Of a stretch of 64,000 nucleotides of DNA, positions 1 through 64,000 are shown piece by piece. This DNA is from Candidatus Omnitrophota bacterium. GTDB taxonomy: Bacteria; Omnitrophota; Gorgyraeia; Gygaellales; Profunditerraquicolaceae. The stretch covers positions 69,302-133,301 of the forward strand of contig JAQUOV010000003.1 of assembly GCA_028716965.1 (NCBI GenBank), in the 5' to 3' direction. The notes below the pieces were generated by a model that was not told the origin of the DNA, did no database searches, and saw only the letters and a list, made by a program, of their open reading frames with translations. The first letter of the stretch is position 1. Each line of letters begins with the position of its first letter. The position numbers and the translations under genes are program-made.

Positions 1-3000
1 GATGTGACCGCTGCCGATAATACCCCGCTTACTTCAGGTAACGAAATCTTCAGCGCTTCTTCCGGAGTAACATAATCAAAAATAATTATTATCCCCAAGC
101 GCTTTTCTCCCCTTTCATTCATCTCCCGGCGCAACTTTACGGCTTGCGAGATAAAATCATCTAAATTAACCCTGCTTGCGTTTAATAACCGTCCTGCATT
201 AATCCCGCCACAGGCTGCTACACCGGCGGCAAAAGACTCTTTTTTCTCTATCAAGGCGATTAAATCAGGGGATATTCTTTGCTTCTTAACAAGCGGGGCA
301 GCCCTTGACTGAAGCAAATAAACAGTCGTCTTGCCATCTCTGGTTTCAGAAGTCAACTCTACCTCCTGAGGCTCCCCTTCTTTTTCCTCAAGCTCTTCAC
401 AAATTTGGGAGAATCTTAAGAATAAATCAGGGTTAGTTTCTTCAAGCGCCGGACCGCTATCTTTGCCTTTCTGTATTCTGCTGACTAATTGTGAATGCCT
501 CGTAGTGCCGGATACCAATCCAAAGCCCTGCGCGCATGATTTATAATCTCCGTGTATAATGCTTTCACTGCTGGCAAAATCACGCGAGAAAACAACTGCT
601 GTCCCTGAATCTCTGTTTAAATTTCCAAATACCATCTCCTGCAAAAGGCAGGCTGTGCCCCAGGCGGACGAAATTTTAAACCTCTGACGGTATCGTAATA
701 CATTCTCTTTATCCCAGGAAAGAAATATCTCGCTGATACAATCTAAGAGGATCTGAAAAGGATCACATAATCCCTCTTCAAAATCGGGCTTGGCCTTTTT
801 AATCTCATCTTTAAATAAGTTAATAAGAATGGTTAAATCCTCTGCGCTGAATTCGCGGATGGTCAGATCTTCTGCTTTTACGGATAGCCCACTTCGATTT
901 ATTATATTGGCCTTCAACTCATCTATCATATATGAGAACCTGACAAATTCTATGCCTGCAAATGCCGAAGCATATGTTCCCAGGAATGTCCTGTAAACGC
1001 CATGGACAAATGAAGACTCTTCTCCTTCAGAAACCATACTTTGCGCAATTGCATCGCTCATAGGAACATTTAGAATCGTATCAAGCTGCCCAGGAAGGCT
1101 GATAAATGAGCCGCCGCGCACAGAAAGCAACAATGTTCCTTTATCAGGCTGTATTTCCTGCCTTGCTTGTATAACTTTTTTTCTTAATCTATCGCTAAGA
1201 AGATTTAAATCAAACGGGAACACCTTCCTAGTTACTGCTTCAAGCTTCAATATTGCATCAACAACCATTCCCTTAAATTCTTCATGGCGGCTGCCGCCGG
1301 ACTTCCATAGTTGGGAATCTCTCCAAGTATCAGTAGTGAAACAAACCCAGGCCGGAACAGTAATACCTAAATGCGCCCGGCTCCTTAAGTTATTCGCTTT
1401 TCCTCCCAAAAGAGCCATAGATATCTCTTTATCCACTTGCGAATAATCCGCAACATAAACTGGTTTTTGCTTCCTTCCCACGGCTATCGCATCTGCTTTG
1501 TCCAAACATGCTTCCACGGTTTTAAGCGCCGTAATAACATATTTCTCAAGAAGCCCGATACAGGCTTCCTGCGCGACTAAATCGCCGATAAACTTCTCCT
1601 GCACATATGCAAAATGCTGTTCATCGTTAAGTTGAATTCCTTGCGGAGGATTGCGGTATTCCGCGCGTAAATTATTTTTGCCAATAGTAGAAGCCATATA
1701 TTTTGGAATATCACCAAAAGCATGATTAAAGAAATCCAGGAAGCGCATTCTTTCCTCATCCAGCAGGCAAAGGATATCCCTGAGCTGGCCGATAGTAAGC
1801 GTTTGTGTTTTAAGCACTTTATTAATTTCAACCAGTCGTTTCGTTGCTAAACCCTGAAACTCAATTTTGTCCAAAACAAGCGTAAGGGCCTCAATAACAA
1901 GTGGGAAATCTACTCCGGGCCCTTGAGCAATGGAGTCTTTAAATTGTTGATTAAACAATTCTTCTAAAATGATATCTTCATATACTTCGTATTGCCTATC
2001 CTTGTTAAAATCGAAGAATTTCCTTTCTTCATAACGGCCATAATACCCAAAGAGCTCAAATCCCCACTCAACTCTGGCCATGTGTCTTCTGGAATACATT
2101 TCTTTGCTGATTAATAATTCTTCGAGAGGGGTTAAAATGTAGCTTTTACTGGTCCGGCGTATCTCTGCTATCTTCTTTAAAGCTGAAAAGTAATCCCCCC
2201 CGTCAATAAATAACGCTACGTCTTTATCAAGCCCTTCTTTTCTGAAATTGCCCTTTATGCTCTCGGCATCGGGATACCGTTTAGTGAGCCATTTATGCAA
2301 TTCCAGGAGAGATTTGATTACCTTTCTTTCCATTTCATTGGCGACACTGATTCTCTCAAAAATCGCATCCAGCATCTCAAGGGGGATTAATACAGGATTG
2401 TCTATATCCTCACCCGTAGTTTCACTATATAGCTGCATAGCGCTTTCCAATATACGATGCGAAGAGTCCATAAAAGAGCAACTGAATGAACTAAAGACCT
2501 CGGCTTGGGCCTGTGGTTTTATGAATTCCTTCACAAGGAGCGGGTTTTGGTTTTGCAAGGCAGAAATTACCGCAAAAATAAAGTCTTTATCGTCTGAGCT
2601 CGGATTTCGATGTAACTTCAGCCTGATATATCTAAATAAATTATTCTTCCTTACATAAAATTCATCAAGCCACTCAGAGAGCTTGCGAATCCTATCTACG
2701 CAATCTGCAGATATATCAATGCCATAGGGTACTGAACGGCAAAGTAGATTAGTTAGATAATAAACACCGCCGATATTACTATTTAAAAGCTCGCTTATGA
2801 CCTCTTGTATGAAATCATCTTCAGAAAAAGAAATAAGTTTTAACCTTAGGGCACAAATAAGAAAAACGATTGTCTGGCGGCCTGCCACAGGATCATGGCA
2901 GACGATTTTAATTATCTCTCTGATTAGGCGGGCATCAATCTGCGCTTGTGAATTTAATATTAAAATCAGCACTGTTCGGATCAACTTTTGATCTGTGTGT

Positions 3001-6000: not shown

Positions 6001-9000
6001 TCATTCAAGTTAAGACTGAAAAGAAAGTTATTCATAATGTAATTCACAACGTTTTCTTCTTTGCCGGCCTTAGAGAATAATTCAAACATTTTAACCGTTA
6101 TCGCCGTTTTCGCTCCCATACTCATAGTCTCATCAGACAAAAAATATCTTATTTCTGGAAGCTTAACCGAGTTCTTATATTTATGCAAAGCTACTTCATA
6201 CGGCTTACGGTATTCATCTAAAAACTGCAGCATAACACCATAATTGAAGAGATTCCCTGCTTCTTCCGAAGAAACAGGCAATCGGGCAGTTGCGGGAAAA
6301 AGCGGCGATCCTGCGATATGATATGCCTCTTCCCTACGGACCGAGCCTAAATAATACCTTTGACCTCCATAATAACCACCAATTTTTTCCTTACCGAATG
6401 GAACTTTTGGATAATTCTTGAGGCAATATTCTTTGCCTTTTGCATCTTGCTGAGAAAAATATTTATGGCAACAGACTAAATCTATAAGGGGCATTTTTGA
6501 ACTGATATACCGCGAGAATTGATTTGAATATTCTATTATTTCTTCCCCTATCTGGTATCTAACTTGCTTATTTATGCCATATCTACTATTTATTTCGATA
6601 TTATGGATAACCATGTTCCCCTTTATATCAATATACAGCCATGCGCACGCTATGGGATCTTTAATCTTCTCATCAATGATCTCTAAAGAGTTTATGCCTA
6701 TGTCAATAAGTCTATATAATATGGCATCGGGGAACTGATCGCTGTCCATCGCAAGGCAATAACCTACAAAATCACCTTGAAAAAGGTCATATCCAGGGTT
6801 CCTGCGTATAGGCCTGATTACAAATACCCCTCCGGGAAGGCTTTTGTCAATGCAGGAGAAACGTTTCTCCCTGAATCGTTTATCCTCTGATTTCCCCAGC
6901 CATCTTTCTATATCTAAACCATAATCTTCCATCCCTTCTCTTACCAGCCTATTATGTTCAGCTATTTTCCTACCCATAGCATCTTCCTGTTTTTCATTCC
7001 CGATAAAATCCCACACCCTATCTTCAAATAATGCTTTCAAAATGCCTTTAAATAGAGGTACTGAACCCGGGGCAATTCTTAATAAATTCTCTTTAGCCGT
7101 ATTCAACCTGGGTAAAAAAGGCATATACAGTTTATTGTGTATATCAGGATTTATGTTTCCCGCTTGCACACCTAATGAATCAGCAAAATAAGGCAAGAAC
7201 ACTCTTGCTAATTCATTATATAAATTATTGACCCCTCTAATAAAATTACGGTTATCCAATAATATGAGGTTATTTAATTTCTCGGTAAAAAGTTGAACAC
7301 AGCCTGCTTCTACAAAAGAAGAGGATATATCTAATACCTTAAATAATTCTGTCATTGGCACACGGTATTTTGAGCGGGAAGACCTGGTTTCTATTTCCTT
7401 TTTAATCAAAAACAGGGAATTTATGATCTCTTCGTTTTGCAAGCCTTTTTCTTTTGATTCTAAGAAACGGGCAACTACCCGGGAGTGGGAGCTTTGGCTA
7501 AACAAACTCAACATATGTTTAATGGCACCGGGCAATATTGATTCCAATTTACCGGCTAAAGGGAGATGCCTTTGCTTAAATATCATTTCATTGATTTTCC
7601 GTTCAGGATTTATTCTCCTGTTCTGCTTAATAAAAGCACCTAAAAGACTATCCAACAGCGTTTGGATGGGGGAACTGGATTCCTTTAAATCGCTTAATAG
7701 CGCGGAAACATCTTCCTGTGTAATTTTGTCTGTCAGCTTAAATACCACCTTTGAAAAATATGTTTTTCCCCTGGAATAAGCGAGATTATTTACGAGATAC
7801 TTATGAAAGCTGACGTCACCTTCCAGCGCATTTATAAAAGAGCCAAGAAATAGAACGGATGGACCTTTGGTTTCTAAAGATGCCAAGGCTTCATAAAGTG
7901 ACTGATTTTTAGGGAAGGATTCATTTTTAAGAGGCCACTTATTTGAAAACTTGTATTTCAATAACCTCCATAATTGCGTGGCGGCGAACAGATTATTGTA
8001 TTCTCTGGCAAATTTTGCCAATATGTTCCAGGCGCGCGACCTCCAGTAGGGAGTGAACCTTATAATATGGTAAAGGTACCGGGTTATTTCCTCAATTGCC
8101 GCCGGCTCAACAGCAACTTTGAGAAAAGCGCTTATCTCTTTTAACAAGCCTTCATATTTCTTATCCGTAATATCCCACTCGGAAGCCAATTCCCATCTTA
8201 GGCACAAGGTTTTTGCCTTGCCCAATTCGCTATCTTTAAAAGGAGCCGGAGGCGCCCGGGTAAAACGTGAAAGAAAACGCAAGTTCTTATCCCAAGGCGT
8301 AAATATAAGCGTGTACTTTTTACCGGAACCAATATTAACCTCATAAAAATCATCCTTGTCTACTACCATATCTACCGATTCCAACGCTTTCCTAAGAATA
8401 CCCGGAACACAGGCAGATTCCTTTTTTTGCTCCTTTGCCGCTACAAATAAAGTAACGATATTGTTCCCCTGTTCATTATTTACCTCTATCCTATAAGCGC
8501 TAAAGGCTTCATTAAGATATATAGCCCAATGCTGACGGGGTTTCATCATGCTGAATCTTTTGTCTTTGGGCCAACGGTTAACTAACCAGGTAAAAGGTGT
8601 CTCCTTTGCGGGGTTCCTGAAATCAGAGTATATAAGAGTTACCCTTATTGCCGCTATGTCATTAACCAGGGCTTTATCCTTAATAAAGTCCTGCAATCTT
8701 GACCTATCCAATAGCCCCTCAAACATCTTCTGCCATTGATTATCAACAAAAACAAAGTTAAAACTCCACTCCAGGGCCGAACTGGAGGAAATTACCGGCA
8801 AGGCAACAGTGAATTCCGTATATTCCCCTGGTAAACTCTCCACACTTACATTCCCGCCAAGTCCGTCAGCAATCTTTTGTAAACGGTAAAGCGGCATATC
8901 TCCATTATAGGGGTAATGCGAAAGACCAGGGTCTGATTCCTTTAAGGAGTAAAGCGGCAAGAACAGGTAATCGAAATCCTCTTCCTTGATCCCTGCGCCT

Positions 9001-12000
9001 CCTTCATCACGTATCCGTATAATAAACCACTTGTTTTCATGGACAGCAAAGGACACGGAAAAAGTATGGGCGCCGGCCTGTTGAGCGTTCTTGAGCATAT
9101 AAGAGATTATTTTCAATAAAGCAAGCTGGACCGCTACTTTTATTGGCTTATTAAAAACCCTGTCTTCTATGAAAACTTTTATTTTAAAAGATTTCTCTCT
9201 CGCCTTTAATTCATTCCGGATACTTGCTACGATTTCACGTGCATCCATAGGTTGCGGTTGCGCTTTACCGGATAACATATTATTTCTAATACTAATAAGT
9301 AAAAATAATAATTTTGTGGTGTTTTTCCTTATAGTATTAACTTCTTCGAATTCCGGAGCGATAAACTCAATTTCGGCTAATATCGCGTGGATCTTTTTAC
9401 ATATTCCGATAATGTTTTCCACAGCATTATTTAAATTTGCTTCTAATTTACCTAAAGGCCTTGCGTCATTTTGCTCTTCCCTTCCAACAATCCTTAGGGC
9501 ACTGATTATTAAATCCTGGATAGCCCGGGTTTTCTCGTTTGCGCTACCTTTAGTCTTCCTCGCCAGCCGATCAGTAGATTGCCCCATTGCATTAAGAGGG
9601 TTCTTTATAATATGGCTCATTCTTTCGGAAACGATGCAACGGCAATTCTTACCGAATAATTCTTCCGCTTCCCTTCTTACATCTTCGTCAGTATCGCGCC
9701 TTAGTCTTGAAATAAGAAAAGAAGCAACCACTATACTGATCCGGCGCAAATCCTGCACCAATAACATCCTGATCTGCCTACTGCCATTTTCCACAATGCC
9801 TTCCAATGCCTGCTTTGCTAATTCATCATTTATTTCAGCGTGAAACGCAAGGAATTGAAGGACCGAGAACCTTTCATTGTCGTCAGGAATGAAGCTAAGA
9901 TAACGTTGTTTATGCAAAGTAAATATCGTTTCTTTCTCCTTACCCTTTATCGCCTGGGGAGCAAGTATACTGATCTTCGGGTCATTTCCGCGCGCGTTAG
10001 TCCCATATGTCTTGCCATCTTTTGGATCGCCTTTTTCGTCAGCTATATAAAAATACATGGTAAAAGGACACTTCTCTTTCCCTGCGGTTGGCTTACGAGG
10101 ATAACAGCGGACTTCAATTCTAAAAGCATTACCGGATTTCTCAGCGCTGTCATTATTATTTTGATAAGGGCTTACTCTTGTCCAAACATGCTCCAAAATC
10201 TTTATTTCATGCTCTCCCGAACGCTCTGCCTGATATACATCTACAATATGCATATCGCTGTAGTCTCCGCGCGCTTTTCCATTCTCAAACCAGGCAATTA
10301 CTTTAATATATTTATTTAACAAGGCTTCGCACTCAGCCTTTGTAATTACTTTATCCAGCATGATCGTTCCATACAGATAAAACGGCTCCAGAAAATATAC
10401 GCGTTCTGGAGGCATCATCGAATGATCCCTGGTAAGACTCCACCTTAATGCATCCCCGGTTATTATGCCGGGCCAATTTTTCTGATCCTCCAGCAAAGGA
10501 GAAGCTCCTACTTTAGAATATTCGCTGGCGCCGGCCTGGGCAAACAGATGAACAATCATTTCCCGAGGGACAAGAGAGGAGAATCTCTGCTGCATCCTGC
10601 GCAATAATGTGTATGTGTCATTTACCCCCTTGTCACTAAGTATATCGTTGATACTAACCTCAAAATCAAATTCCAGCCTCAGGAATTCCTGCTCCAGTCC
10701 GGTCAATGGGTTCTCATTATTAAGCAACCTGTACGCCAACCAATCTCTCGGCCCGAATAATAAAGGATGGATGGAGCCTTTGAGGTAATGCGCAACTTTC
10801 ATCCCTTCCCTGACTTCAAGCAGTTCATGCATGCGGTGATGAAGCGTTCCCCGCAAAATAATTATTTGTGTAGAAGGCTGGTTGGCTGTTATTTTCTGGA
10901 TAAACCCGTTTAAACTATGATCCCTAAGAAGATAGTTCTTCGCCCATGCTTCCACGGAATCTTTCAACAGAGATAGGTAGCGTACGGGGTCTTGCTTGCG
11001 AACATCACCAGCCAGATACTCCAAAGACTCCCCCTTTATCCGCGATACCCAAGCGTTAAATGGCAAACAGTTATATTCGGAAACAATTTTTATTTCCGGG
11101 AAACGGTTTAAGAAATCGTCAAGCCCTTTGCGGTAAGCCAGGGAAACAGGATCAAGCAACATTCCGGGAACAACTAATCTGCGTTGCCTGGTAAAAGAAA
11201 GAGCGCGTTCCTTACCATCTTCAAATCTACGCCTTAATTCAGCCGGATGTTTGTAAATATGCCTTTTCACCAATTCTTCCGGCCTTATATACGTCCCGTG
11301 CTCCTCCAAAATGAATACGATAGGCAAACCTGAAGCCTCTGCGACAATTTTTTCCAGGATTATTCTGACCTCTTCAAAATGAGCAGCATACCCATGTGGA
11401 CCGTAGATATAGGCGATCTTGGCTACGCTCTCCTCACCAAAAATCACTTGCAATCTATCTACTAAAACAGCCAGTGCCTTGCCTTTCTTGGGGCCTAAAT
11501 CATATCTGGAAAGGATCTTTTCTAAAGCTTTTGCCTTTTTTGTCTTGGAAGAATTCTTCTCGGAAATAATCTCCCTAACTCTATTTAGAATAACGGTATC
11601 ATTATTTATATCATTAACAAGATTAGACAGCAAATCTTCCATTGCAAGCGGGCTGGAGGAATCATTGATACTGTAATTTCTTACTAAGTAATTAAAATTT
11701 ACGGGAATGTGGGTACTTAAATGGGGAATTTCTGATTTTTCAGGGAGGCGCCCTGCGTTATAAGCTTTTGTTAAAATACGGCAATCTTCATCCGTAAGGC
11801 CTATCAGAGAGCCTAAAGCGCGGATTAAAATATTCTCTAAATTCATCCCCTTCTGGAAGTAAACAACTATCCTGGATATGCTGAATTTTACTGCAAGATT
11901 AATTATTGTTTTACGGCTAACCTCAAGGAATGCATAAGCTTCAATTGCAGTAACGGCAATCTCCACATCTACGTGTCCGCCAAAGGTGAGATTTTCGCCG

Positions 12001-54000: not shown

Positions 54001-57000
54001 TCAACGCTTTCGCGTTCGCAGAGGACTTCTTTTAAACGCTGGGCAAGGTCATATATATAACCATAACGTTCAGTATCGGCAGCAGTAAGCTCATTGGTAT
54101 GGGATTTCTTGGTCTTAAGAAGCAGGTATTTCTGCAGGGTCGGCTGGGTCACTGCCTGCAGGATATCAATAGAGAAGTCCAGGTTGAGCATCTTTAATTG
54201 CTGTTTAAGCTCTTCCTGCCTGTCCTTAGTCTCGGTAACAGCCAACTGCTTATGCAAGGCAAGTTTCTGCTGGAAGATGGTTTCATAATAGAGATCCACT
54301 ACTACCCTGGCTGCCTCCAGGCTGTATCTGTGGTTCCACCAGTTAAAATTAGTATGGCCGCGTTCAAGGATATCCTTTAATTCCATCCAGGTCATCGGCT
54401 TTTCGATCATCCTGCTGATCAACAGCGGGCTGTCTTCATCAGGCCAGATCTGGCCTAACTGGCTGATCTTGTAAAGCACCGGAGTATGGATCTTGCCGAG
54501 CCTGCCTTTATCCTTACCTAAGTACTCTTTTAATTTATCGTTAAGTTCGGATTCGGATAGCTTAAGGATAAGACGGTTACCTTCCCTGTATATCCAACCC
54601 ATGGCAATACACTCCTCTACTGCCTGCCGGGCATCCGCATAGTTGCCGAATACCTCAATGCCTTTGCCTAAGCCTCTTACCGGCTGGGATATCGCCCAGA
54701 ACTGGTCATTGGAGATGCAGGTAATAGAGCCTTTTGGAGTATCATCCAGTAATTGCAGAGCCTGCAGGTAAACCTGCTCATTCAATTCCAGGGTAACACC
54801 TTTGTATACTGCCGGCACGATATTGCAGCCTTTATAGCCAAAACGGCTGGCAGTAAGAGGATAACCGCGGCTGCCTGTGCCTGCGGTATGTATCATCAGG
54901 ACTTGCGGGTTAACAGGAAGCCTGCCTTCTTTGATAAGGCCAAGGATATAATGCTGGACAAAGACAGCGCCGTCAAAGTTATACATCTCTACCTCTATAC
55001 CTTCCATGGTACGGGAGATAACTTCTACCTTGGTGTCTTTGAAGAGTTCGCTTATAGGATGGCTGTTAAAACGCTGTCTTAAGAAGATTGCGTCTTTTTC
55101 GGAAGCAGTGGTATAAAACACCAGGTCAAAATTCCTGCCGCTTGCCAAATGCTCCTGCGCGCGCTGGATATAGTAGAGTGAAGCTTGGGGAGTCTGGTTA
55201 TAAACATCCCTTAAAGAAGAGACCAGCCAGGAGTAGCGCTCTAGATCAGCGAATATATCCTCTAAAACAGTAACCCTAAGATAATCTAAAATCTCTTCGC
55301 GGTAGAGGTTATGCTGAAGGTAGTGTTGGATGAGTTCAGGGATTATTGCTTTAGTTGAGTAAAGCGGGGGTAGAGAGTCTATCTCCTGTTTGATACCTTC
55401 GGAAATAATCTTGTGATTTAGTAATAGATACAGCCTTTCTTTTTTGTTTGGAGACAGGGAGCGTAATAATATTTTATAGAAACCATTTTTATCGGTAGAG
55501 TTGATTAGGGGCAAGATAATGTTCTTTTGTTTCTTTGGGGGGAGCTTACCGAACATTTCCAGAAGCCGCATATCCGTGAGCAATTCTTCTAAAGCAATCT
55601 CTTCAAAGTTAGGCGCGCGGGCGCGGACATTGCTCATAAGTATCTGTATTAGCAAATGATGGAATTCTTCATGCATAAGCAGAAGTTGAAGCAGGCGGGA
55701 GTGCTCTAAAAGAAAATCTTCTATTAAAAGAGTAAGCCTGCCGGTGCGGTAATATACAGCAGAGAGTTTATTGTAGCCAGAGGTAATCTCTATCTGGAAG
55801 CCGGATTCGTCTAATTCGGGGTACTCTTTCTTGGCGCGGTTAAATACTTCAGAAAGGTTGCGTGCCTGATTTAACCTGCCTGCTGAACGCAGCGCGGTTA
55901 AAACTTCCTCTTTACTGCCGCGGTAAAGCACATTGAGCACCTGGCCTTCAGCGAGGCGCGTGGCGATTGAAGAGGTTAATAAGGATTCGGACGCGAGAAC
56001 TGGAGAGGCCGCTCCGTTTTCAATGCTGCTCCGATACAATTCCAGATATTTGGCAGCCGATATTTCCCAGCCGAAATTGCCATTTATGGCATTATTAATT
56101 AAAGCCAGCCTGTCTTCATCCTTCTGCCAAGCCATTATCGCCCGTTTAATAGCCGCTACCATTGCATCGGTGTTACACGGTTCAAAGAGAAAACCGTTTC
56201 CCTGCTTTGTCTTGGGATTAAATTCTACTACGGTATCTGCCAGGCCGCCTGTTTCGGAAACAACCGGGATTGTTCCGTTAACAAGGGAATAGATCTGGGT
56301 TAATCCGCAAGGTTCATACCTGGAAGGCATCAAGAATATATCCACTCCTGCCACAAGCAGCTTACCCAACGTTTTTATAACAGGATCATGCTGCTTGATT
56401 TTCATTCTAGTGCCTATACCATAATGCAGGCTGACCCTGCGCCTTAGCTGTTCAGGGAGAAGCCGAGTACGGTCTGTAAATTCCCTAAACAAGCTGTCAT
56501 CATCAGAACCAATCAATACAAACTGCACCCCCAGTTGCATAATTTCCTCAAATTTGTTCAGGATAAAATCAGCTCCTTTTTGCCTTGCAAAGCGGGTAAA
56601 CACTCCGATGATTGGCATATCAGAAAGCTCTAAATTCAATTCCCTTTGCAGCATAGCTTTATACCTGCCTTTGCCTGCTAAAACATTAGGCAGGTTATAT
56701 TCCTCTTCATTTCCTAATGATTTCCATTCATCATAATCTACGCCATTAAGTATTCCATGAAGATGCGCTTTCCTCTCTGATAGAACGCCTTCTAAGCCGG
56801 CGCCGAATTCTTCTCCGGGCTTTAAGATTTCCTTGGCGTACCTGTCGCTTACCGTCGTAATCTCATCCGCATAAATAATCCCGCCTTTCATAAGGTTAAT
56901 CTGGCCGTAAAATTCCAAGCCGTCAATGTTAAGCATCTCTTCCCTGTTTAACCCGGTAAGCTCAAAAAGATGATCATCAAACTTTCCCTGATAGTCAGGG

Positions 57001-60000
57001 CCTAAATTATGAATAGTGTATATTACCCTGCTATTTTCTAAAGATGGCTCATTCTTATAGTCGCTATGCTTTTTAAGTAACGGGGCAATCAAAGCAGCCT
57101 GCCAGTCATGAGGATGGATAATATTCGGGTTTAACTGGAATTCCTTAACCAGCTCTAAAGCGCCCTTAGAAAGAAACACTGCCTGTTCAAACATTAATTC
57201 TTTCAATAAGCCGGCGCGCTCATGCATATAGATCTCCCTACCCAATCTTTGGGTAAGATAATCCTGCGCAAGCTCAAAGTCAGAGTTTTGCGCTCCTAAA
57301 TAGAGTTTCTTGGAATATAGTGGGTGCTGCAGGAAGAATACAGTTACACCGTTAGATTTTGCAATCCATACCGGAGCGAATTCTTTTTTGTTGCCTATTT
57401 TTATTATTAAATCCCTGCCGGTATATTCAATGCCAAGCTTATTTCTTTTATCCTCATTAATGTCATCATAAAGCAGGGTACAGACAGATACTATCTCGCC
57501 GAGCTCGGATTGCGCTTTGGGTAAGATGCCTAAAACATCAGCTAAGCCGCCTGCTTTCGCGTAGGGGACAATCTCCGGGCTGACATGGAGTATCTTTAAC
57601 ATCTCAAGCGCGCTTGAAGCCAAGAGAGGCGGCGCGCGGGGCTGGGATTGTTTCAAGAGTAAAGGCGAAGAATTCGAGCCATTTAAATTATCCATAGGAC
57701 ACCTATATCCAGGCCGTGGCGTCCAACCGTATGGACAAACCCAGCCTTGGTCGCCACAATATACTGTAAAATCAGGACAATCTTTAATTTCAGATGTCGT
57801 AGCTGGCTCAGAAGGGATTTGTCGCTCAACAAGAAGCTGTTCCTCTGCTGAACTGATATCTTCAGCAACTTTTGCTGCAACTATATTAATTGCAAGGTTA
57901 GCTCTTTCTGGCGTCAATGTAAGTTTGCCGTAAGATACCAAGAAAATATTGTTATATTTCATATGAATATTATTAATCTGATCCTGAATTTTCTTTTTCT
58001 TTTCAAGACCATTGATTTTCTCTGAAGGATAAACTTCATTGCCCCAATCATCCACTTCTTGTATAAAACCAGTAATAATGTTGCGATATATGCTGTGAGT
58101 TCTAACCGCGTCTGCCTGAAAATAGCCGTGATAATCCCTTCCGACGAATTCCCATAATTCCATTATGCCATTTACATCCATATGTTTAATTACTTGATTT
58201 AAAGAATATGTTAATTTCTCGAGTCTGGTTAAATCAGCTAATAAATATCTGGCTATTCGCGATGCGTCTATTCCTTCTTTAATAATCTTTTCGGTTACAA
58301 TACATAGCCTTTTGAATAATTCCTGCTTATCATATTTTGAGACATCGCTATAATAATATTCTACTTTATTTATACAGTTGTTTGCTATCGATTCTTCAAT
58401 ATTTAGGTTTTTGATTAAATGTGTTTCAAATATACACATTCTTAACTTATGTAAAAATGATGGTTTTACTGATATTATATCGCCTTGCGACTGCCAACAA
58501 AGCCAACTTAATGAAAATACTATCTTGTTGATAATAAGAAACAGACCTCTCGCCAATCCTAAACCTGCGATGAAAATTAAACTGATCATCCAAGGCGATA
58601 ATGAGGTTATATAAGAGACTGCTGTGCAGCTGGGGACCAACAGCATTAAGCTGCTAATAGATAATACTGATAATATTTTAGCTAAGCGGGAGTTATCTTT
58701 TGGTTGTATCGGAGAGCTTACACCTTGTTTCCGGCTCTTAGATAATTCTTTTTCTATCTCCACTAATACCTGTTTGAGGCGAGCGATCTCTTTCGTGGTC
58801 TGGGATACCATGCGCTTGTCATTATGGTTGATATCCAGCGAGGCTATGGCTTGGGTTAAATCCATAACTATAGCAGTACCTTGCTCACGCACTTCTTCGG
58901 GTAGGGTGTTGACAAAACTAAGGGAATCCTTTATCTCCACTAATACCTGTTTGAGGCGAGCGATCTCTTTCGTGGTCTGGGATACCATGCGCTTGTCATT
59001 ATGGTTGATATCCAGCGAGGCTATGGCTTGGGTTAAATCCATAACTATAGCAGTACCTTGCTCACGCACTTCTTCGGGTAGGGTGTTGACAAAACTAAGG
59101 GAATCCTTTATCTCCACTAATACCTGTTTGAGGCGAGCGATCTCTTTCGTGGTCTGGGATACCATGCGCTTGTCATTATGGTTGATATCCAGCGAGGCTA
59201 TGGCTTGGTTCATGGTCGCGCTAATACGAGCCGCATGTTGCAATTTCAACTCTACATCCAGGCTATCCATAAAAGATTCGCTTTTTTGGACCAATGATAT
59301 TACTCTTTCCAGCGAAGTAATATACGCTAATGTTGCCGCCAGCCCACTTATTGATTTACTGCTGCTTAAGATGGTTTTTAATTTAGCTCTTTGCTCGTCT
59401 AAGCTCTTCAGGGTCTGCTGACATAAACTGTACACACTACCAGGTAAAGAGGTCATGTAACCGACTATTGCATTTAATTTCTTCATTACATTAATGATCA
59501 AATTCAACTCCTGCCTGGCCCACTCACGTTCAGTATTTTCATATAACGAACTTATTTTCTTTTTCGTATGCTCTATCTCCTCAGTAATTGCGGCCAATTC
59601 ACCGGCCTTCCGGGAACGGATGTCTTCAGCTATGCCCTCCGCGGCAATTTCTCCTTTTAGTTCGGCAATCTTATCATTATCTCTTAACAACTCTTCTCTC
59701 AATGGGGCAACCTTACTATGAAGGGTGTTGACGGCTTTCGCCAACTCATCAGCCGGAGTACCTTCGGGCGTAAGCCCAAATTCTTCAACCATAGCGGCCG
59801 CATATTCTGTTTTCCCAGGGAAAACCAACTTTCTCATCTCAGTTAAAGCCCCCTCAATATAATTGTACGCTTCCTGATGGAAGAATATCCTAGTCTGCTG
59901 TAAGCGGGCTTCGACTGTGCTGCGGGTTTCAAAATCAAGATTATCCCGGACAGCTTCAAAATCAGCGACTATACCAAGATAAGACTCCTGCAGTTTATTC

Positions 60001-63000
60001 AGTTTATAGCACCCGATTATCTTGGATAAGACAATGTGGGTAAGGAGGATACCACCTATCCAACCCACATACACGAATAACTCGCCGAAAGTAACCTTTA
60101 ACATAGCCTTGCCTAAAGCCAGGTAGAAATAATCCGGAAGAGGGACAAGGCCGAATAAGAAGAATGCGGTTGTGCCGATAACGTAAAAGCGGCTCAATTC
60201 CCACAATGCTCTATGCCATTTTGGCCAAGTGGATTTATTCTTTAGTATCTTATCAATGCCTAGTAATAAGGTTTTAACAATTAAATCACGCATATGACCT
60301 AATAGTACGGGCTTGCCTGCTTTAGGCATATAGGCCGAAAGAACATATAAAAGCATGAATGCGCTTAATATTAATGGCACAGCAAATATCCCCATATAGG
60401 CTAATCCAATGATGAAAGACCCAGAAGATTTTAAAGCGCCGTGCAGGAAATAAATCGTAATTATACCTAAGCCCAAGCCCAAAGTATCTATTGCTCTATC
60501 CCCCCACTCTCTGAAGCAGCCCTTGAAAAACGGCCATCTTTGGATACCTTTACCTAAGCTTACTCCCGGCTTATTCTCGCTTACAAAAGGACCGATTACC
60601 ATAGAGATACCGAAGAATGTGGAGATAAACAGGAATATGGCATTGGTTAAATCCAGCCCGACCATGAAGGCTATGACATTGAAAGTGGTCAAGACAATGC
60701 CGACTCCTATCTCTAATCTATAAAGTTTCCTGTTCTTTGATAAATTCATCTTAGAGAGAATATTATACTCCCCAAAGTTTCCGGCTCCGGAAGTAGCAAA
60801 GATGTATCCTACTCCTTTATAGCTCATTACCTGTGCTAAAGCTTCAAACATTACGCGATGGGCAAAAAGTATGATGTCTCTGGGTCGCTGGGATAACCAG
60901 CGTCCGACTCCCAGGAACGAAGCGCTGGAGAAAAATCCGTAAACGCCGATAATCGCGGAGATAACAATCCCACCGAATAAGTAATAATATAAATAAGCCA
61001 ATAATAAGCCTCCGATAATTCCACGGGCGAATTGCTTCGGTGAGGCAAATAACGAAGGCACGCCGGAAACTGCGCGTAAGTGCGCGCCGAATCCGTTAAA
61101 AGTGCTTATCTGATTGAATGCCGTACCGATAATTACAAAGGCTGCTCCTATCCCGACAAAAGGTAGCGTATCCAAAATAATGCCTAACGGTATAAGGAAC
61201 AAACCAAGCATAGCCACCGGCATAGTTACGTAGAACCTGGCAGTGTCTCTTCTGCCATCGCGCTCAAAAATAGCTTCCGGCCCAAAATCATTTATGGCCT
61301 GAATGATATAGCTACCCAGCGTCTGCGTTAACCCCCAGGACCAGCGCGGTACGGCATTCTCCAATTCTGCAGTGCTGTAACTTTCTCTCATCTTAAAGGC
61401 TAAAGCAAAGGAAAGCGCAAAATTCGGCCTTACCCCTAAAGCAATCAGGTTATGCGTCTGATACATAACATCCACAAAATCTTCGCTCTGATGCGGGGCG
61501 CTCGGGCCTAAACCTATTAAACCGTAACGATACCAATCGTTATATTGAGAATAAGGATACATCTCTTGCATTTCACTAGTAATGGGCATGACCGGCTGAT
61601 CAGAATTTCTTAAGGCCGCTAGATATCCATCCTCACCTTGATCAAGCAATTTCATGATGTTCATCCAACCCGTGCCTATTTTATCGTTCCATCCCAACAT
61701 TGAATATCCGTGTCCACCTTCTACTAACCAGGACATATTACCGAGAGGCATACGTATGTTAGTAGTATTCCTTAAAGCCGGCATGATTACAATCTCCGGA
61801 TTACTGATCATTCTCTTTAAATCATAAGCAAATGTATTTACATCAAGAGAGTTAGAGTTCCTATCCATAACTACGAGATACTTTAAGCGACTCATAATAT
61901 CATGCGGAAGCATAAATACCCCAAGCATCGCCCCTGATTTCAAAGTGGAAGGATTGGCGTTATGAGTATTGTAGAATCTCCCCCCTCCGGAGATATATTC
62001 AAAGAGTGTGCCGAGTACTTCATAATTCGCGATATCATCTTCTTGCCACCACTTTCCGAACTGATTATGTGTAGGCACCAAGACAAGATTCTTACCTAAA
62101 CCTTCTTCTCTGAGTTTGGCCGCAATATCCATAATATTTATCGGGGCATCAAAGGGCCAAAGGGCAGTGTTAGTCATTATGAGATGCCTTCTAACCGCGT
62201 GACCTATTCTGATTCTTGTTAACTCATCTTCGCTTACAGCTCTAATTCTGCAGATATCGGTGACATTAGGATCCTCAACCTGAACTAAGCTGAAAAGCGG
62301 AATGCCGTTAGCCACACTTTCCCATGTATGTTTCATAAGCTTCTTTTCCGCATCATCTAAATTTGACGACTTAATAAATGCCTTCATCTTATCCTGATAG
62401 TCTCTGTCTCTATAATATTTAAATACAAGCGTATCTTCATCGGGATTCTCAAAGAATTGCTGCCACTTGTTACTTCCTCCAAACATTTCCAGTATAATTC
62501 TTCTTGGAATTCGCGGCTCTTTCTCTTTGTTTCCAAGAACATTGAGTGCTTGCTCGATTTCTCTCATCACCTCTTCATCGCTTAAATTCATATTCTGAAG
62601 CATGACCCTTACTTCATCAAAAATGACATTGACCTCGGGAGAGTAATTATCTATCAGGTGTTGCAAACACGACATCATGGCTGCTGGATTCCTTACACTG
62701 TTCGAATGGAGCGGATGCCCCACATAGTTAATAAATATTAGATTGTTGCTTTCGATAAACTCGCTTATCTTAGTCTCGTCTACCTTGGTGGGACCGTGCT
62801 CTTCTTTATAAATAATGGTGGAGAGCCAAGTAACAAACGGCCATATACCATATTCCAAAAGATATACGAATAATGCCAGCCCTGAATAAATGCCTAAGGT
62901 AGCCCGGGCATACAATCCCGCATCAAAATGACTATAAATCCAAGGTAATGAGAACCAGCTAATTACTAATCCCAAACTCATAAATAAGGAGTATTTAGCT

Positions 63001-64000
63001 AAGCGTAATAACACTGTCCTCGGCCTGCCTACACCAATAGAAGGCCTAAAATTCCGGTAGCATGATAAACCCACCAAAGAGCGTCCGAAAACCAGGTTTA
63101 TTAACCCTTCCAAATATAAGGTAGTCACCAAGAAAACCTTTAAAACAAAGGTGCTTACTGAAACCACCGGCATAATACTGTGGAGTATGCCGGTTAAAGC
63201 AAGAATCAGCATACCATTAATGCTGAATAAATTACGTTGCGCACCAAATCTTAAGCGGGCCATTCTTCCGTACTGATAAAATGTGTTGAATAAAACAAGT
63301 AATGATACTACTGCCAACGCTTGCGGCACCAAGGCAGCGGCAAATATCGCCGAAAGCTTCCCGCTTATAGCCCAAGCATAAAGCGCAGCCGTATTAAAGC
63401 CCAAAATAAGCGCGTAAGGCAGGTAATAAGCCATCTCAATCAGATAGGGAGGTATGGACTTTGCCCCCCAGCCCAATCTTCTTTGCCATCTTTCTTTCCA
63501 GAAGCTCTTGAGTTCTTTTTTGATTATCTTGAACTCTTCAGGTAAAACATAAGGTGTAGCCGGATCAGTATTCTTTATGCTTATGCCGAGTTTTTGCAAA
63601 TCCTGCTGTAGGCTTTTAAAATCTTCCTTCTCCTCTCCCTCGGCCTTAACAGAGATTACCTCCTCAAGAGTTCTTTGGTTACCGACTTCTTTTTTGGCTT
63701 CAAATATTGTCTCGCTTCTCTTTCTAATTCTCTCGATCAATGCTGCCAAATCCTGACTAATCTCCCGATCAAACAATGTAATTCCTTCGGCTTTAAGAAA
63801 ACTCCGGAAATGCTCTAGGTCAAAATCGCCATCCACAAGCCTTATCTCTTTAAGAATACTGTCGAAACTATTCCTATCGCCAGTAACCAAGGCTTTCCTT
63901 AATTTATGCTCTATATTAAGGAAATACAGCTCCAGCTTATCCAGGATTTCTTCATCCGGATGCCCGATCTGATTATATGGGCTGTCTAAATTCAGAACGT
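1..64000 (-). CDS. Single giant multidomain ORF, partial at both ends (about 21,330 codons in window); protein larger than 21 kaa
   Basis: Minus-strand frame with codons at + positions 3k..3k+2 has no stop (no tta/cta/tca triplet in that register) in a line-by-line scan of 22611-64000 and in a hand translation of 1-22610. The frame register is the same at both ends (partial codons at 1-2 and 63999-64000). Recognisable protein motifs occur in this frame all along the window. No + strand ORF exceeds 267 aa. Confidence 0.85.
300..1450 (-). other. PPDK_N-like PEP/pyruvate-binding ATP-grasp domain (pyruvate phosphate dikinase / PEP synthase N-terminal family)
   Basis: MALLGGKANNLRSRAHLGITVPAWVCFTTDTW at about 1380-1440, GGSFISLPGQLDTILNVPMSD, SSAWGTACLLQEMVFGN...GTAVVFSRDF, and GKTTVYLLQSRAAP. 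Confidence 0.55.
8760..9700 (-). other. Histidine-kinase core: HisKA H-box plus HATPase_c (copy c)
   Basis: H-box MSHIIKNPLNAMG at about 9600-9630. N-box region LKIISYMLKNAQQAG, G1 box IRIRDEGGAGI at about 8985-9010, and G2 box GGNVSVESLPGEYTEFTVALP. Confidence 0.55.
12780..13150 (-). other. Response-regulator receiver (REC, CheY-like) domain
   Basis: VTILVVDDEPDLRKGIKNLL...LLVTSDISMPEMDGIALLDVLK...IPVVMIST...GAAGYFNK, with the acidic pocket, phospho-Asp and conserved Lys in canonical spacing. Confidence 0.6.
15750..16620 (-). other. YvcK/CofD-like (UPF0052) domain 1
   Basis: ILESGGGASIAMAGVIARM...LAVISGTDNGGSTLITRG at about 16450-16580. Confidence 0.4.
17000..21000 (-). other. Alpha-helical (HEAT/ARM-like) repeat region
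   Basis: Long Leu/Ala/Glu-rich helical periodicity in translation; weak call. Confidence 0.25.
21400..22610 (-). other. P-loop NTPase / kinase-like domain
   Basis: Walker A LDLLTGLGGSGKTTALGY at 22562-22610. Confidence 0.45.
26500..27000 (-). other. HExxH zinc-metallopeptidase-like motif (M48/M56-like)
   Basis: GLVMLFAHELKHILSGH, with the HELKH codons at about 26750-26764. Confidence 0.35.
29181..29201 (-). other. Walker A P-loop motif (GRSASGK) of a small kinase-like domain
   Basis: Translation ILLRIVGRSASGKVPLARHFGLF. Confidence 0.3.
29250..29650 (-). other. GHKL/HATPase_c-like ATPase domain (copy b)
   Basis: VKLVDNGRGMTADALQ at about 29450-29490 and GTGIDGQGIGIYTM. Confidence 0.45.
30600..31440 (-). 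other. HIT-like GDP-hexose phosphorylase / GalT-Apa2-like domain
   Basis: FGASVNHLHFQILY (H-x-H-x-Q) at about 30830-30880. Confidence 0.35.
31440..33020 (-). other. glgA: Glycogen/starch synthase-like domain 1 (GlgA, GT5 family)
   Basis: An in-frame Met at 33018-33020 starts MTILHISPEADPFSKEGGLADA. Further motifs: IHAHDWQAAMVAPL, FYSIHNLSYQG, RLVPDKGLDL, MPSRKEPCGLTQ, RTGGLADTI, and a C-terminal NFSWEVSASKYLELYRSS. Confidence 0.8.
33030..34130 (-). other. Cupin-like domain (class II phosphomannose-isomerase-like)
   Basis: GDIGRPHIHTPIDNQPLEVIIIQRGKARF at about 34030-34100, then HPALGHTHQFTA (a His-rich motif) closer to the GlgA domain. Confidence 0.35.
34600..34900 (-). other. GHKL/HATPase_c-like ATPase domain (copy a)
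   Basis: LAIDNGDGIPGIF (D-x-G-x-G) at about 34850-34875 and GNGMGF at about 34780-34800. Confidence 0.45.
35330..36880 (-). repeat. Tandem duplication of a roughly 258-aa domain (two diverged copies, period about 774 bp), unknown function
   Basis: Both copies share IMGGPFD / IIGGPFD, LYNVHATL, YGREDDEFY, KPSxxxNxxDFI and RRKxIKLNIP motifs. The + strand shadow ORFs 34948..35442 and 36022..36225 share ...GIFNF..FL.ASR ends. Confidence 0.6.
38900..40400 (-). other. GT-B glycosyltransferase domain (trehalose-6-P synthase / sucrose-P synthase-like)
   Basis: Translation WWVIEGEPLHFEVTKFF...IFLVHDPQPAFMFYLLKF...WQGHIQFHISQD...TIILQNGRFDELKDPEGVMIAYRMLAL...LLLTAPLPSDD resembles the OtsA/GT20 and GT4 pattern. 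Confidence 0.35.
40450..41400 (-). other. Metallo-beta-lactamase-fold domain
   Basis: HMHEDH motif (H-x-H-x-D-H) at 41364-41387 inside ISHLAITHMHEDHVAGALAYFE, with downstream His/Asp positions. Confidence 0.5.
44100..45800 (-). other. YvcK/CofD-like (UPF0052, 2-phospho-L-lactate transferase / gluconeogenesis-factor family) domain 2
   Basis: N-terminal IMGGSGGVPTILMENLLGDV and SIAIICSPHDDGGSSRKL...YIPSPGDPMN (about 45670-45800), and C-terminal IVLGPGSLVTSVLPVLMIPEIVEAIKR (about 44100-44180). Confidence 0.4.
50272..52319. repeat. 2,048-bp exact direct repeat, copy 2
   Basis: As above. Mismatches flank both ends (50271 vs 53151; 52320 vs 55200). Confidence 0.95.
50900..52100 (-). other. Nucleotidyltransferase-like (UDPGP / fucose-pyrophosphorylase-like) domain inside each repeat copy
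   Basis: Gly-rich NTP-binding-like stretch LMIHTAGTGSRGYPLTASRFGYKGCNIVP, followed by a beta-strand-rich stretch KGKVVVINSIINAGSLVDSVVVNSRCGTLIAGPGSLAWM. Assignment is tentative. Confidence 0.3.
53152..55199. repeat. 2,048-bp exact direct repeat, copy 1; in-frame coding of about 682 aa that includes a sugar-nucleotidyltransferase-like domain
   Basis: Nucleotide-identical to 50272-52319, offset 2,880 bp (a multiple of 3). The duplicated + strand track ORFs 53536..53808, 54094..54288, 54198..54380 and 54753..55082 equal 50656..50928 and so on. Confidence 0.95.
55200..56030 (-). other. Module A variable helical region (diverged paralog of 52320-53150)
   Basis: Translation starting SGAASPVLASESLLTSSIATRLAEGQVLNVLYRGS aligns at roughly 40% identity with the region upstream of repeat copy 2 (GEEGLGAFVTTLFTSSFANRLSEGQISQVLLSGS). 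Confidence 0.5.
56030..57602 (-). other. glgA: Glycogen/starch synthase-like domain 2 (GlgA, GT5 family)
   Basis: An in-frame Met at 57600-57602 starts MLKILHVSPEIVPYAKAGGLADV. Further motifs follow in the same frame: HPHDWQAALIAPLL, IYTIHNLGPDYQG, RFARQKGADF, MPSRYEPCGLTQIY, ETGGLADTV, and a C-terminal W-x-x-SA-x-x-YLELYRS. Confidence 0.75.
57696..57790 (-). other. Cys-rich knot CPDFTVYCGDQGWVCPYGWTPRPGYRCP (possible Zn or disulfide motif)
   Basis: Five Cys residues within 28 residues in the ORF frame; no family recognised. Confidence 0.25.
58520..58700 (-). other. Hydrophobic transmembrane-like segment(s)
   Basis: Translation ILSVLSISSLMLLVPSCTAVSYITSLSPWMISLIFIAGLGLARGLFLIINKIV. Confidence 0.4.
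58755..59208. repeat. Perfect 177-bp tandem repeat, about 2.6 copies (58758-58934, 58935-59111, 59112-about 59208); encodes 59-aa repeats in the minus-strand ORF
   Basis: Identical DNA units seen directly. The minus-strand translation per unit is about KDSLSFVNTLPEEVREQGTAIVMDLTQAIASLDINHNDKRMVSQTTKEIARLKQVLVEI. The + strand ORF 58624..59421 is its antisense shadow. Confidence 0.9.
59215..60000 (-). other. Coiled-coil-like charged helical segment
   Basis: Heptad-like Glu/Lys/Leu-rich translation (ELLRDNDKIAELKGEIAAEGIAEDIRSRKAGELAAITEEIEHTKKKISSLYENTEREWARQEL). Confidence 0.3.
60000..63550 (-). other. Polytopic membrane region (multiple hydrophobic helices) flanking a roughly 430-aa soluble loop at about 61500-62800; possible membrane-embedded synthase/anchor module
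   Basis: Translation gives long hydrophobic runs such as LILALTGILHSIMPVVSVSTFVLKVFLVTTLYL, MPVAMLGLFLIPLGIILDTLPFVGIGAAFVIIGTAF and IGVGIVLTTFNVIAFMVGLDLTNAIFLFISTFFGISMVIGPF. The loop contains GHAVRRHLIMTNTALWPFD...LVLVPTHNQFGKWW. Confidence 0.5.

Follow-up and report, generated by a model that had tools for sequence, protein, structure and literature searches.

A 64-kb stop-free reading frame from Candidatus Omnitrophota is an internal fragment of a giant gene and encodes a predicted synthase-like membrane module

The 64,000-nucleotide window analyzed here, a stretch of contig JAQUOV010000003.1 from a Candidatus Omnitrophota bacterium, is spanned on its minus strand by one stop-free open reading frame (ORF) of 21,332 codons that is open at both window edges (+ 3..63998). 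The frame is almost certainly an internal fragment of a genuine Omnitrophota giant gene of at least 21,332 codons. The giant size itself is not new, and the window is one more fragmentary example of a documented phenomenon: such genes have been described since 2022-2023 and are now catalogued in thousands; size alone teaches little. The new part of the finding is a membrane module that Pfam does not detect, that is predicted to resemble processive polysaccharide synthases and that appears to form the conserved core of the family. We regard this module as a useful, testable lead. As a whole, the window is quite probably best explained as a giant-gene fragment of the class described as 'Archaeovorin' or 'multi-enzyme', in which a synthase-like anchor is followed by a cytoplasmic tail.

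The window was translated in six frames, and amino acids (aa) are numbered from the first full codon of the minus-strand ORF. All features described below lie on the minus strand, with coordinates given on the + strand. A sequence-only reading of the window had described the minus-strand frame at positions 3k..3k+2 as free of stops, and the translation bears this out, as the codons from + 3..5 to + 63996..63998 contain 0 stops in 21,332 codons (63,996 bp). The codon at 22608-22610, which had been singled out for checking, belongs to this open frame. The remaining five frames are stop-rich, as had also been stated, with 649, 994, 1404, 1639 and 1814 stops and a longest open run of 272 codons. 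For the open frame, the minus-strand base composition predicts 1,360 stops, and log10 P of finding none is about -610. In-frame TAA, TAG and TGA each number zero across the giant ORF; therefore, no codon reassignment is needed, and an alternative genetic code was rejected. The GC content of the three codon positions follows GC1 > GC3 > GC2 in every 1,000-codon bin, and the two shifted registers hold 49-110 stops per bin. Composition and codon signature are uniform along the ORF, and protein-level matches in the open frame extend from the PPDK N-terminal domain at + 3-1415 up to + 63995. The codon signature, the edge-to-edge homology and the improbability of so long an open run all support the earlier claims that the frame is coding rather than a compositional accident and that motifs occur along nearly all of it. 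Genuine + strand genes were rejected, since the ORFs on that strand are at most 267 aa long and behave as antisense shadows. RNA genes or introns breaking the ORF were likewise rejected, as no tRNA and no Rfam family was found in the 64-kb window. The giant ORF is indeed absent from the ORF track supplied with the sequence, because the ORF lister skips ORFs that run off the source ends.

The gene continues past both edges, as the sequence-only reading had proposed. The low-coordinate (3') edge cuts a PPDK-like unit just before the expected phospho-histidine motif; the window ends about 90 residues past the PPDK ATP-grasp domain (aa 20862-21242), inside the next PPDK sub-domain, and the ORF thus continues beyond + position 1. 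At the high-coordinate edge, relatives extend further upstream. Window aa 2 aligns to residue 846 of P0001 (an Omnitrophota protein fragment), aa 4 to residue 2648 of P0004, and aa 1 to residue 3151 of the stop-free ORF of contig L009. The gene therefore extends past + 64000 as well and, if it is like these relatives, has at least 850-3,150 more residues there. Pfam gave no match on the 3,150 aa of L009 upstream of the window-equivalent start.

The closest relatives share 48-57% protein identity with the window over the conserved N-proximal region, and the top match in the protein database has 57%. Most of them are annotated as partial hypothetical proteins in Candidatus Omnitrophota/Omnitrophica metagenome-assembled genomes (MAGs), which agrees with the suggested link to a few uncultivated phyla. 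Two further best matches are found in MAG records labelled 'uncultured Planctomycetales', and L009 (gap-free JGI contig Ga0315308_1000048, 23.4 kb) is an unclassified metagenome contig. The related loci examined were L001, L003, L005, L006, L007 and L009, and every fetched locus is stop-free in the matching frame, either from end to end or as far as scaffold gaps of 100 N. This applies to L009, to the whole 29.7-kb contig of L001 and to 15.6 kb of L003, and L007, a 64.5-kb scaffold, carries fragments of at least 10,788, 309 and 4,631 aa on one strand. The stop-free architecture is thus found in independently assembled relatives over 15-57 kb, gap-free contigs included. In the NCBI MAG scaffolds L001, L002, L004 and L007, the giant ORFs are broken at 100-N gaps and their pieces are annotated separately, under names that mislead, for example 'glycogen/starch synthase, partial', 'ElyC/SanA/YdcF family protein, partial' and 'MFS transporter'.

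Genes of this size had been called extremely rare in prokaryotes. This is correct for prokaryotes overall, but not within Omnitrophota, where they are common. ORFs longer than 20 kb occur in 77 of 116 Velamenicoccia genomes (PMC10066038), and the giant protein of Velamenicoccus archaeovorus LiM has 39,678 aa (PMC10066038; 10.1101/2023.11.21.568195). Genes of more than 90 kb number 46, and the largest of them encodes 85,804 aa (10.1101/2023.11.21.568195); a single corpus contains 3,650 proteins of at least 10 kAA, concentrated in Omnitrophota, with a maximum of 147,155 aa (10.64898/2026.06.07.730766). The giant genes published so far are located close to T2SS/pilus and carbohydrate-import loci.

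The most conserved part of the ORF is a polytopic membrane module at aa 170-1345 (+ 59964..63491), with 15-17 predicted transmembrane (TM) segments. Six of these are predicted in aa 193-392 and about nine in aa 924-1325, with a soluble GT-A-like domain between them (aa 393-923, + 61230..62822). This domain carries conserved motifs and was delimited from an alignment of 35 sequences covering aa 482-1345 (A2), a structure model, hydrophobicity and counts of lysine plus arginine (K+R). The preceding aa 1-192 are soluble and conserved in relatives, and the last hydrophobic pair before the tail is a TM hairpin predicted from hydropathy at aa 1775-1823 (+ 58530..58676). Pfam at E <= 0.5 assigned no family to aa 1-1000 and no relevant family to aa 1001-2000. 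The motifs 'MDRN', 'SED' and 'PRW' are reminiscent of processive glycosyltransferases (GTs), and the idea was therefore tested structurally.

The AF2 model of aa 482-1345, built from alignment A2, reached a pLDDT of 78.5 and a pTM of 0.80; AF2 on aa 170-1345 from only four sequences gave a pLDDT of 40 and was discarded. In a Foldseek search of the model against PDB, the top 35 matches were all membrane-integrated processive GT2 synthases, including chitin synthases (E 2.9e-7), BcsA (1.1e-5), hyaluronan synthases (2.3e-5), CesA8 and a structure deposited as 'membrane-integrated glycosyltransferase', with probability 1.0 for nearly all. E839-D840 ('SED'), K869, R871-E872 and R885-W886 ('PRW') are invariant in the 35 sequences, and D712-R713 ('MDRN') nearly so. 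In the model, D712 follows a beta-strand at the usual DxD position, E839-D840 open a helix, like the TED motif of BcsA, and R885-W886 open the next helix, like QxxRW. A kinship to GT48 (FKS/callose-synthase-like), suggested by 'SED...PRW', was rejected, as the fold searches rank GT2 synthases first. The processive GT2 synthases (the bacterial cellulose synthase BcsA, hyaluronan and chitin synthases, plant CesA/CslF6 and the cyclic beta-1,2-glucan synthase Cgs) have in common with the module the predicted fold and a GT-A-like domain flanked by TM helices. However, their identity to the window module is only about 9-12%, with no Pfam GT2 or PDB profile match. Unlike these synthases, the window module is part of a polypeptide exceeding 21,000 aa and keeps QxxRW only in the reduced form P-R-W. 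As modelled, the likeness is a fold-level resemblance and not family membership.

A profile of the module (A1) was searched exhaustively against 1.84 billion cluster representatives and retrieved only 149 proteins, which mostly run to thousands of residues. Among these is a group of about 4,200-4,600 aa (P0022, P0024, P0031, P0043, P0046 and others) that start with Met and a signal-peptide-like N-terminus. In these proteins about 3,400 aa precede the module, and the chain ends 50-100 residues after it. At least one member of the group is from a Verrucomicrobiota/Limisphaerales MAG, and Pfam found no family anywhere in P0024 and P0031. This group possibly corresponds to the ancestral state of the family, before its members became giant, and the comparison suggests that the giants may have grown by a tail appended to a membrane synthase. 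The tail after the module is not colinear among relatives. P0004, like the window, has GlgA after the module, the L009 tail (13517-23359) has HEAT, B12-binding and radical-SAM domains, and the L001 tail (9611-19510) has epimerase, radical SAM, RNHCP and UDPGP. Parts of the window tail (a 960-aa unit described below and aa 10873-11242) are also found in L009, and their distance from the module there is very different. Judged from sequence, the non-colinear tails indicate probable module shuffling, and the simplest inference is that the membrane module is conserved and that the tail appended to it is modular and changes fast.

The tail begins at aa 1824, is about 19,500 aa long and contains few hydrophobic segments, all of them isolated. 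Recognizable domains account for about 15% of the ORF residues; the remainder is non-repetitive and of ordinary composition, and rescanning it with Pfam in 1,000-aa pieces at E <= 0.5 brought no reliable addition to the first scan. The tail contains two glycogen/starch synthase modules. Module 1 (GT5 + GT1) is at aa 2134-2666 (+ 56001..57599; Pfam 4e-56; PDB GlgA 1.6e-57), with KAGGL and EPCGL intact, and module 2 is at aa 10319-10853 (+ 31440..33044; Pfam 2.6e-58), with KEGGL and EPCGL. Both thus keep the K-x-GGL and E-P-C-G-L motifs of GlgA (TIGR02095; GT5), and their full-length TIGR02095 scores are 374.4 and 396 bits, respectively, against a curated cutoff of 328.45. The two modules are 52% identical to each other. 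They differ from GlgA in being internal to a giant polypeptide, in being present as two copies and in scoring below all species-level 'equivalog' cutoffs.

Other domains of the tail include a TreT-like (trehalose synthase) GT N-terminal domain at aa ~7829-8040 (+ 39879..40514; Pfam 2.3e-17; PDB 6zj4 4.6e-17) and, at the window edge, the PPDK N-terminal ATP-grasp domain with the start of the central domain (aa 20862-21332, + 3..1415; Pfam 1.1e-15; PDB PPDK 8e-30 over PPDK residues 16-358). An ARMT1-like damage-control phosphatase domain lies at aa 4735-4988 (+ 49035..49796; Pfam 2.6e-19; also NCBIfam). A CofD/YvcK-like domain is found at aa ~6532-6717 (+ 43848..44405; Pfam 6e-20; TIGR01826 2e-14), and a second CofD-like region at aa 15802-16109 (+ 15672..16595; TIGR04357 4.3e-8; weak Pfam CofD). 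A metallo-beta-lactamase-fold hydrolase (RNase Z / Apyc1-like) was identified by Pfam, PDB-sequence and NCBIfam searches at aa ~7483-7655 (+ 41034..41552). In the region at aa ~5200-5750 (+ ~46750-48400), the sequence looks like that of a sugar-phosphate nucleotidyltransferase ('VALAGKGSRF', G-x-G-x-R-like) with left-handed beta-helix hexapeptide repeats after it. Its sole support is a sub-threshold Pfam match to LbH_EIF2B (E 0.0012, 19 bits vs a cutoff of 54); a genuine enzyme of this kind would supply NDP-sugar beside the glycogen synthases.

The signalling-type domains are two histidine-kinase-like units and one receiver. Unit 1 (aa 11250-11572, + 29283..30251; Pfam 9.9e-10) has an H-box-like 'LHEIKNGL' and HATPase_c with N, G1 and G2 boxes. 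HEAT repeats and, after them, unit 2 occupy aa 18039-18402 (+ 8793..9884; domain searches and sequence), and unit 2 has the H-box 'SHIIKNPL' and HATPase_c. The G2 box is clear in unit 1 only, and Pfam HisKA gave no match at either unit. The response-regulator receiver domain is at aa 16951-17062 (+ 12813..13148; Pfam 1e-15; CheY structures 3.6e-11), and alignment to CheY shows that the DD, D57 and K109 positions are conserved. Within the tail, GC skew on the + strand is strongly negative at 42000-50000 (-0.20 to -0.32), and AT skew is strongly negative too. This stretch encodes a K/E/G-rich part of the protein (aa ~4,700-7,300), and no repeats or special features were found in it.

TRF and self-BLAST found only two repeats in the window, a 177-bp tandem array and a 2,048-bp near-tandem pair. 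The latter belongs to two tandem units of about 960 aa without a recognized function, which were delimited by sequence self-comparison at aa 2672-4606 (+ 50181..55985). The unit cores at + 53152-55199 (aa 2934-3616) and + 50272-52319 (aa 3894-4576) are 100% identical over 2,048 bp with an in-frame offset of 2,880 bp, and the unit flanks are only 48-75% identical at the protein level. Either gene conversion in the recent past or duplication during assembly could account for this perfect repeat, which leaves the copy number uncertain. The region has a GC3 of 0.51-0.53, which is higher than in the rest of the window, and a GC skew near zero. The single outside homologue of the unit is P0158 (848 aa, 52% identity), a free-standing hypothetical protein labelled Candidatus Aminicenantes, which could be a mis-binned fragment or the unit existing as an independent gene. 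The 177-bp array (+ 58755..59208, aa ~1598-1748) consists of 2.6 perfect, 100% identical copies of a 59-aa helical unit ('...LSFVNTLPEEVREQGTAIVMDLTQAIASLDINHNDKRMVSQTTKEIARLKQVLVEIKDS') within a helical region at aa 1400-1770. The P0001 region matching this repeat is also internally repetitive, but diverged.

The window can be compared with two published classes of giant proteins. With the Archaeovorin type (West-Roberts et al. 2023, 10.1101/2023.11.21.568195) it has in common a stop-free ORF of tens of kb, Omnitrophota relatives, clustered TM helices and mostly unannotated sequence. In Archaeovorins, GT5 glycogen-synthase-like domains are the most prevalent GTs, and GT1, HEAT and PPDK are also present (10.1101/2023.11.21.568195); of this vocabulary, Pfam detects GT5 twice, GT1 twice, HEAT and PPDK in the window. 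The 'numerous TM regions' of the type are also seen, as about 17 hydropathy-predicted TM segments at aa 193-1823 and a few isolated ones later. By contrast, the methyltransferase, NUDIX, glycoside hydrolase and peptidase domains of Archaeovorins were not found by Pfam in the window and may lie outside it. A divergent SecA DEAD-like domain occurs in most, but not all, full-length Archaeovorins (10.1101/2023.11.21.568195); none of the Pfam scans over the 21,332 aa matched SecA_DEAD, and the domain could likewise lie outside the window. The Archaeovorin set contains genes of more than 90,000 bp (more than 30,000 aa); the window ORF has at least 63,996 bp (21,332 codons) with both ends open.

In the multi-enzyme metabolic class (Nielsen & Lui 2026, 10.64898/2026.06.07.730766), many distinct Pfam families tile the protein and none dominates. 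This is also the pattern in the window, with 11 distinct Pfam families (E <= 0.001) in at most two copies each. These include PF08323 (starch synthase), PF00534 (GT1) and PF00072 (receiver) from Module 2 of that class and PF02518 (HATPase_c) from its Module 1, plus HEAT scaffolding. The multi-enzyme catalogue has complete genomes, known ends and DeepTMHMM topologies, whereas the window is a fragment with a crude topology. A cellulose-, chitin- or glucan-synthase-like or 'processive' module is not mentioned in either giant-gene paper: the GT2-synthase-like membrane module of the window goes unmentioned in the Archaeovorin paper (10.1101/2023.11.21.568195), and a processive-synthase-like module is not reported in the multi-enzyme paper (10.64898/2026.06.07.730766).

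The orientation of the protein was estimated from rough hydropathy and a positive-inside count, assuming that the hydrophobic stretch at aa 994-1030 is a hairpin. The TM segments are concentrated at aa 193-1823, and K+R-rich loops alternate with short K+R-poor loops, which places aa 393-923 and the region beyond aa 1824 inside. The recognizable tail domains all depend on a cytoplasmic currency, i.e., ADP-glucose/NDP-sugar, ATP or phosphotransfer, and Pfam found no glycoside hydrolase, peptidase, lytic transglycosylase, dockerin, lectin or adhesin domain in the window. Together, these domains, the positive-inside pattern and the lack of hydrolase, peptidase, lectin and dockerin domains favour an inner-membrane anchor with a cytoplasmic tail. 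A TM-only, inner-membrane-anchored and cytoplasm-facing reading is also among the surviving hypotheses for the multi-enzyme class (10.64898/2026.06.07.730766).

The synthase-like module would then anchor the protein in the inner membrane, with the GT-A-like domain and the ~19,500-aa tail past the last TM hairpin facing the cytoplasm. The GT2-like module might polymerize a glycan and/or thread it across the membrane, and the tail might make or modify alpha-glucan or sugar-nucleotide intermediates under two-component-type control. The polypeptide would in this case be one tethered carbohydrate-handling and signalling assembly, and its glycan product could possibly serve the cell coat or host-cell contact. 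We put forward this mechanism, an anchored synthase with a cytoplasmic multi-enzyme and signalling tail, as a tentative proposal whose chances are somewhat below even.

Several observations weigh against the interpretation of the window as a giant-gene fragment with a synthase-like anchor and a cytoplasmic tail. At the sequence level, none of the Pfam GT2 models (Glycos_transf_2, Glyco_tranf_2_3, Cellulose_synt, Chitin_synth) matches the module at E 0.5, and searching PDB sequences with the A2 profile returned noise only, with a chitin synthase at E 6.7. The global TM-scores of the Foldseek matches are just 0.2-0.3, the DxD position reads D-R-N (D712-R713-N714) and the Q of QxxRW is absent. 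The topology comes from a crude count and not from a trained predictor, and most Archaeovorin domains are predicted to be extracellular, although these predictions were flagged as unreliable (10.1101/2023.11.21.568195). About 85% of the residues have no recognizable domain, the perfect 2,048-bp repeat may have arisen by duplication during assembly, and the taxonomic assignment within the analysis comes from homology alone, at 48-57% protein identity, as the window contains no marker gene.

The rival explanations concern both the reality of the frame and the function of its product. A frame that is non-coding, either as a compositional accident or through a reassigned stop codon, is practically inconceivable: all three stops are absent in frame yet plentiful in the remaining five, log10 P is about -610, and domain and homologue matches accompany the open frame along its whole length. 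No point in support of this explanation was found, and it is refuted by the stop counts and the codon signature. It is also highly improbable that the ORF is an assembly artefact, i.e., a chimera or a repeat-collapsed or repeat-expanded consensus of several shorter genes. The perfect 2,048-bp direct repeat and the 177-bp tandem repeat can mislead assemblers; however, the repeat offsets (2,880 and 177 nt) are each divisible by 3, and the frame is uninterrupted. Random joins would keep frame and strand only once in six times per junction and would add stops, while the composition and codon signature are uniform and independently assembled relatives are stop-free over 15-57 kb, also in gap-free contigs. 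A chimeric assembly cannot create a 64-kb stop-free frame.

Two other explanations accept the gene and differ in what it makes, and we consider each of them unlikely. In one, the ORF is a polyprotein or fused operon that yields many separate enzymes through cleavage or internal initiation, so that its size has no mechanical role. Both GlgA modules do start with Met exactly at the start of free-standing GlgA, after Ser/Pro-rich linkers, and the 960-aa unit has a free-standing 848-aa homologue. C39 and S8 peptidases near the N-termini of other giants have been suggested to cleave them (10.1101/2023.11.21.568195). Against this, Shine-Dalgarno sequences precede 1.9% of internal ATGs vs 3.1% in controls; as this is no enrichment, systematic internal translation starts were rejected. 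Pfam found no peptidase domain in the window, and independent products would hardly account for a single frame kept free of stops over 64 kb. Peptides of the V. archaeovorus giant protein, which may be intact or processed, have been detected (10.1101/2023.11.21.568195; PMC10066038). The other explanation is the extracellular predation effector of the West-Roberts model, in which most of the polypeptide in the window is exported and exposed at the cell surface, where it attaches to the cell wall of prey or host and breaks it down or remodels it. For Archaeovorin-type proteins this reading has been published, and many large members of the class combine a signal peptide with TM helices (10.64898/2026.06.07.730766). 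In addition, the distant relatives of the module with signal-peptide-like N-termini carry ~3,400 aa before it, so the part upstream of the window could well be extracytoplasmic. However, the window has none of the hydrolytic, binding or adhesive domains searched for with Pfam (listed above), all its recognizable domains require cytoplasmic cofactors (ADP-glucose, ATP, phosphotransfer), only a handful of hydrophobic segments lie past aa 1823, and the positive-inside count puts the tail inside. The effector model may well hold for the part upstream of the window, and it fits the window part poorly.

The function of Omnitrophota giant proteins is debated, and a surface coat, an adhesin, prey-wall degradation and a membrane-anchored enzyme cluster have all been proposed. 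We offer, as a more doubtful suggestion than the mechanism above, that the core of the giant family may be a previously unrecognized and highly divergent processive polysaccharide synthase/translocase, fused in Omnitrophota to a cytoplasmic tail that runs to tens of thousands of residues and bears glycogen-synthase, sugar-nucleotide-related and two-component modules. The protein would then be a self-contained and self-regulated glycan factory that builds a coat or host-contact glycan, and not a wall-degrading effector. The predicted synthase-like fold with invariant ED and RW, located beside intact ADP-glucose-type glucan synthases, gives a testable hypothesis of polysaccharide synthesis and export, and the module of about 1,200 aa is small enough for expression and assay. 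The module also links the Omnitrophota giants to proteins of ordinary size (~4,300 aa), one of them from a Verrucomicrobiota MAG.

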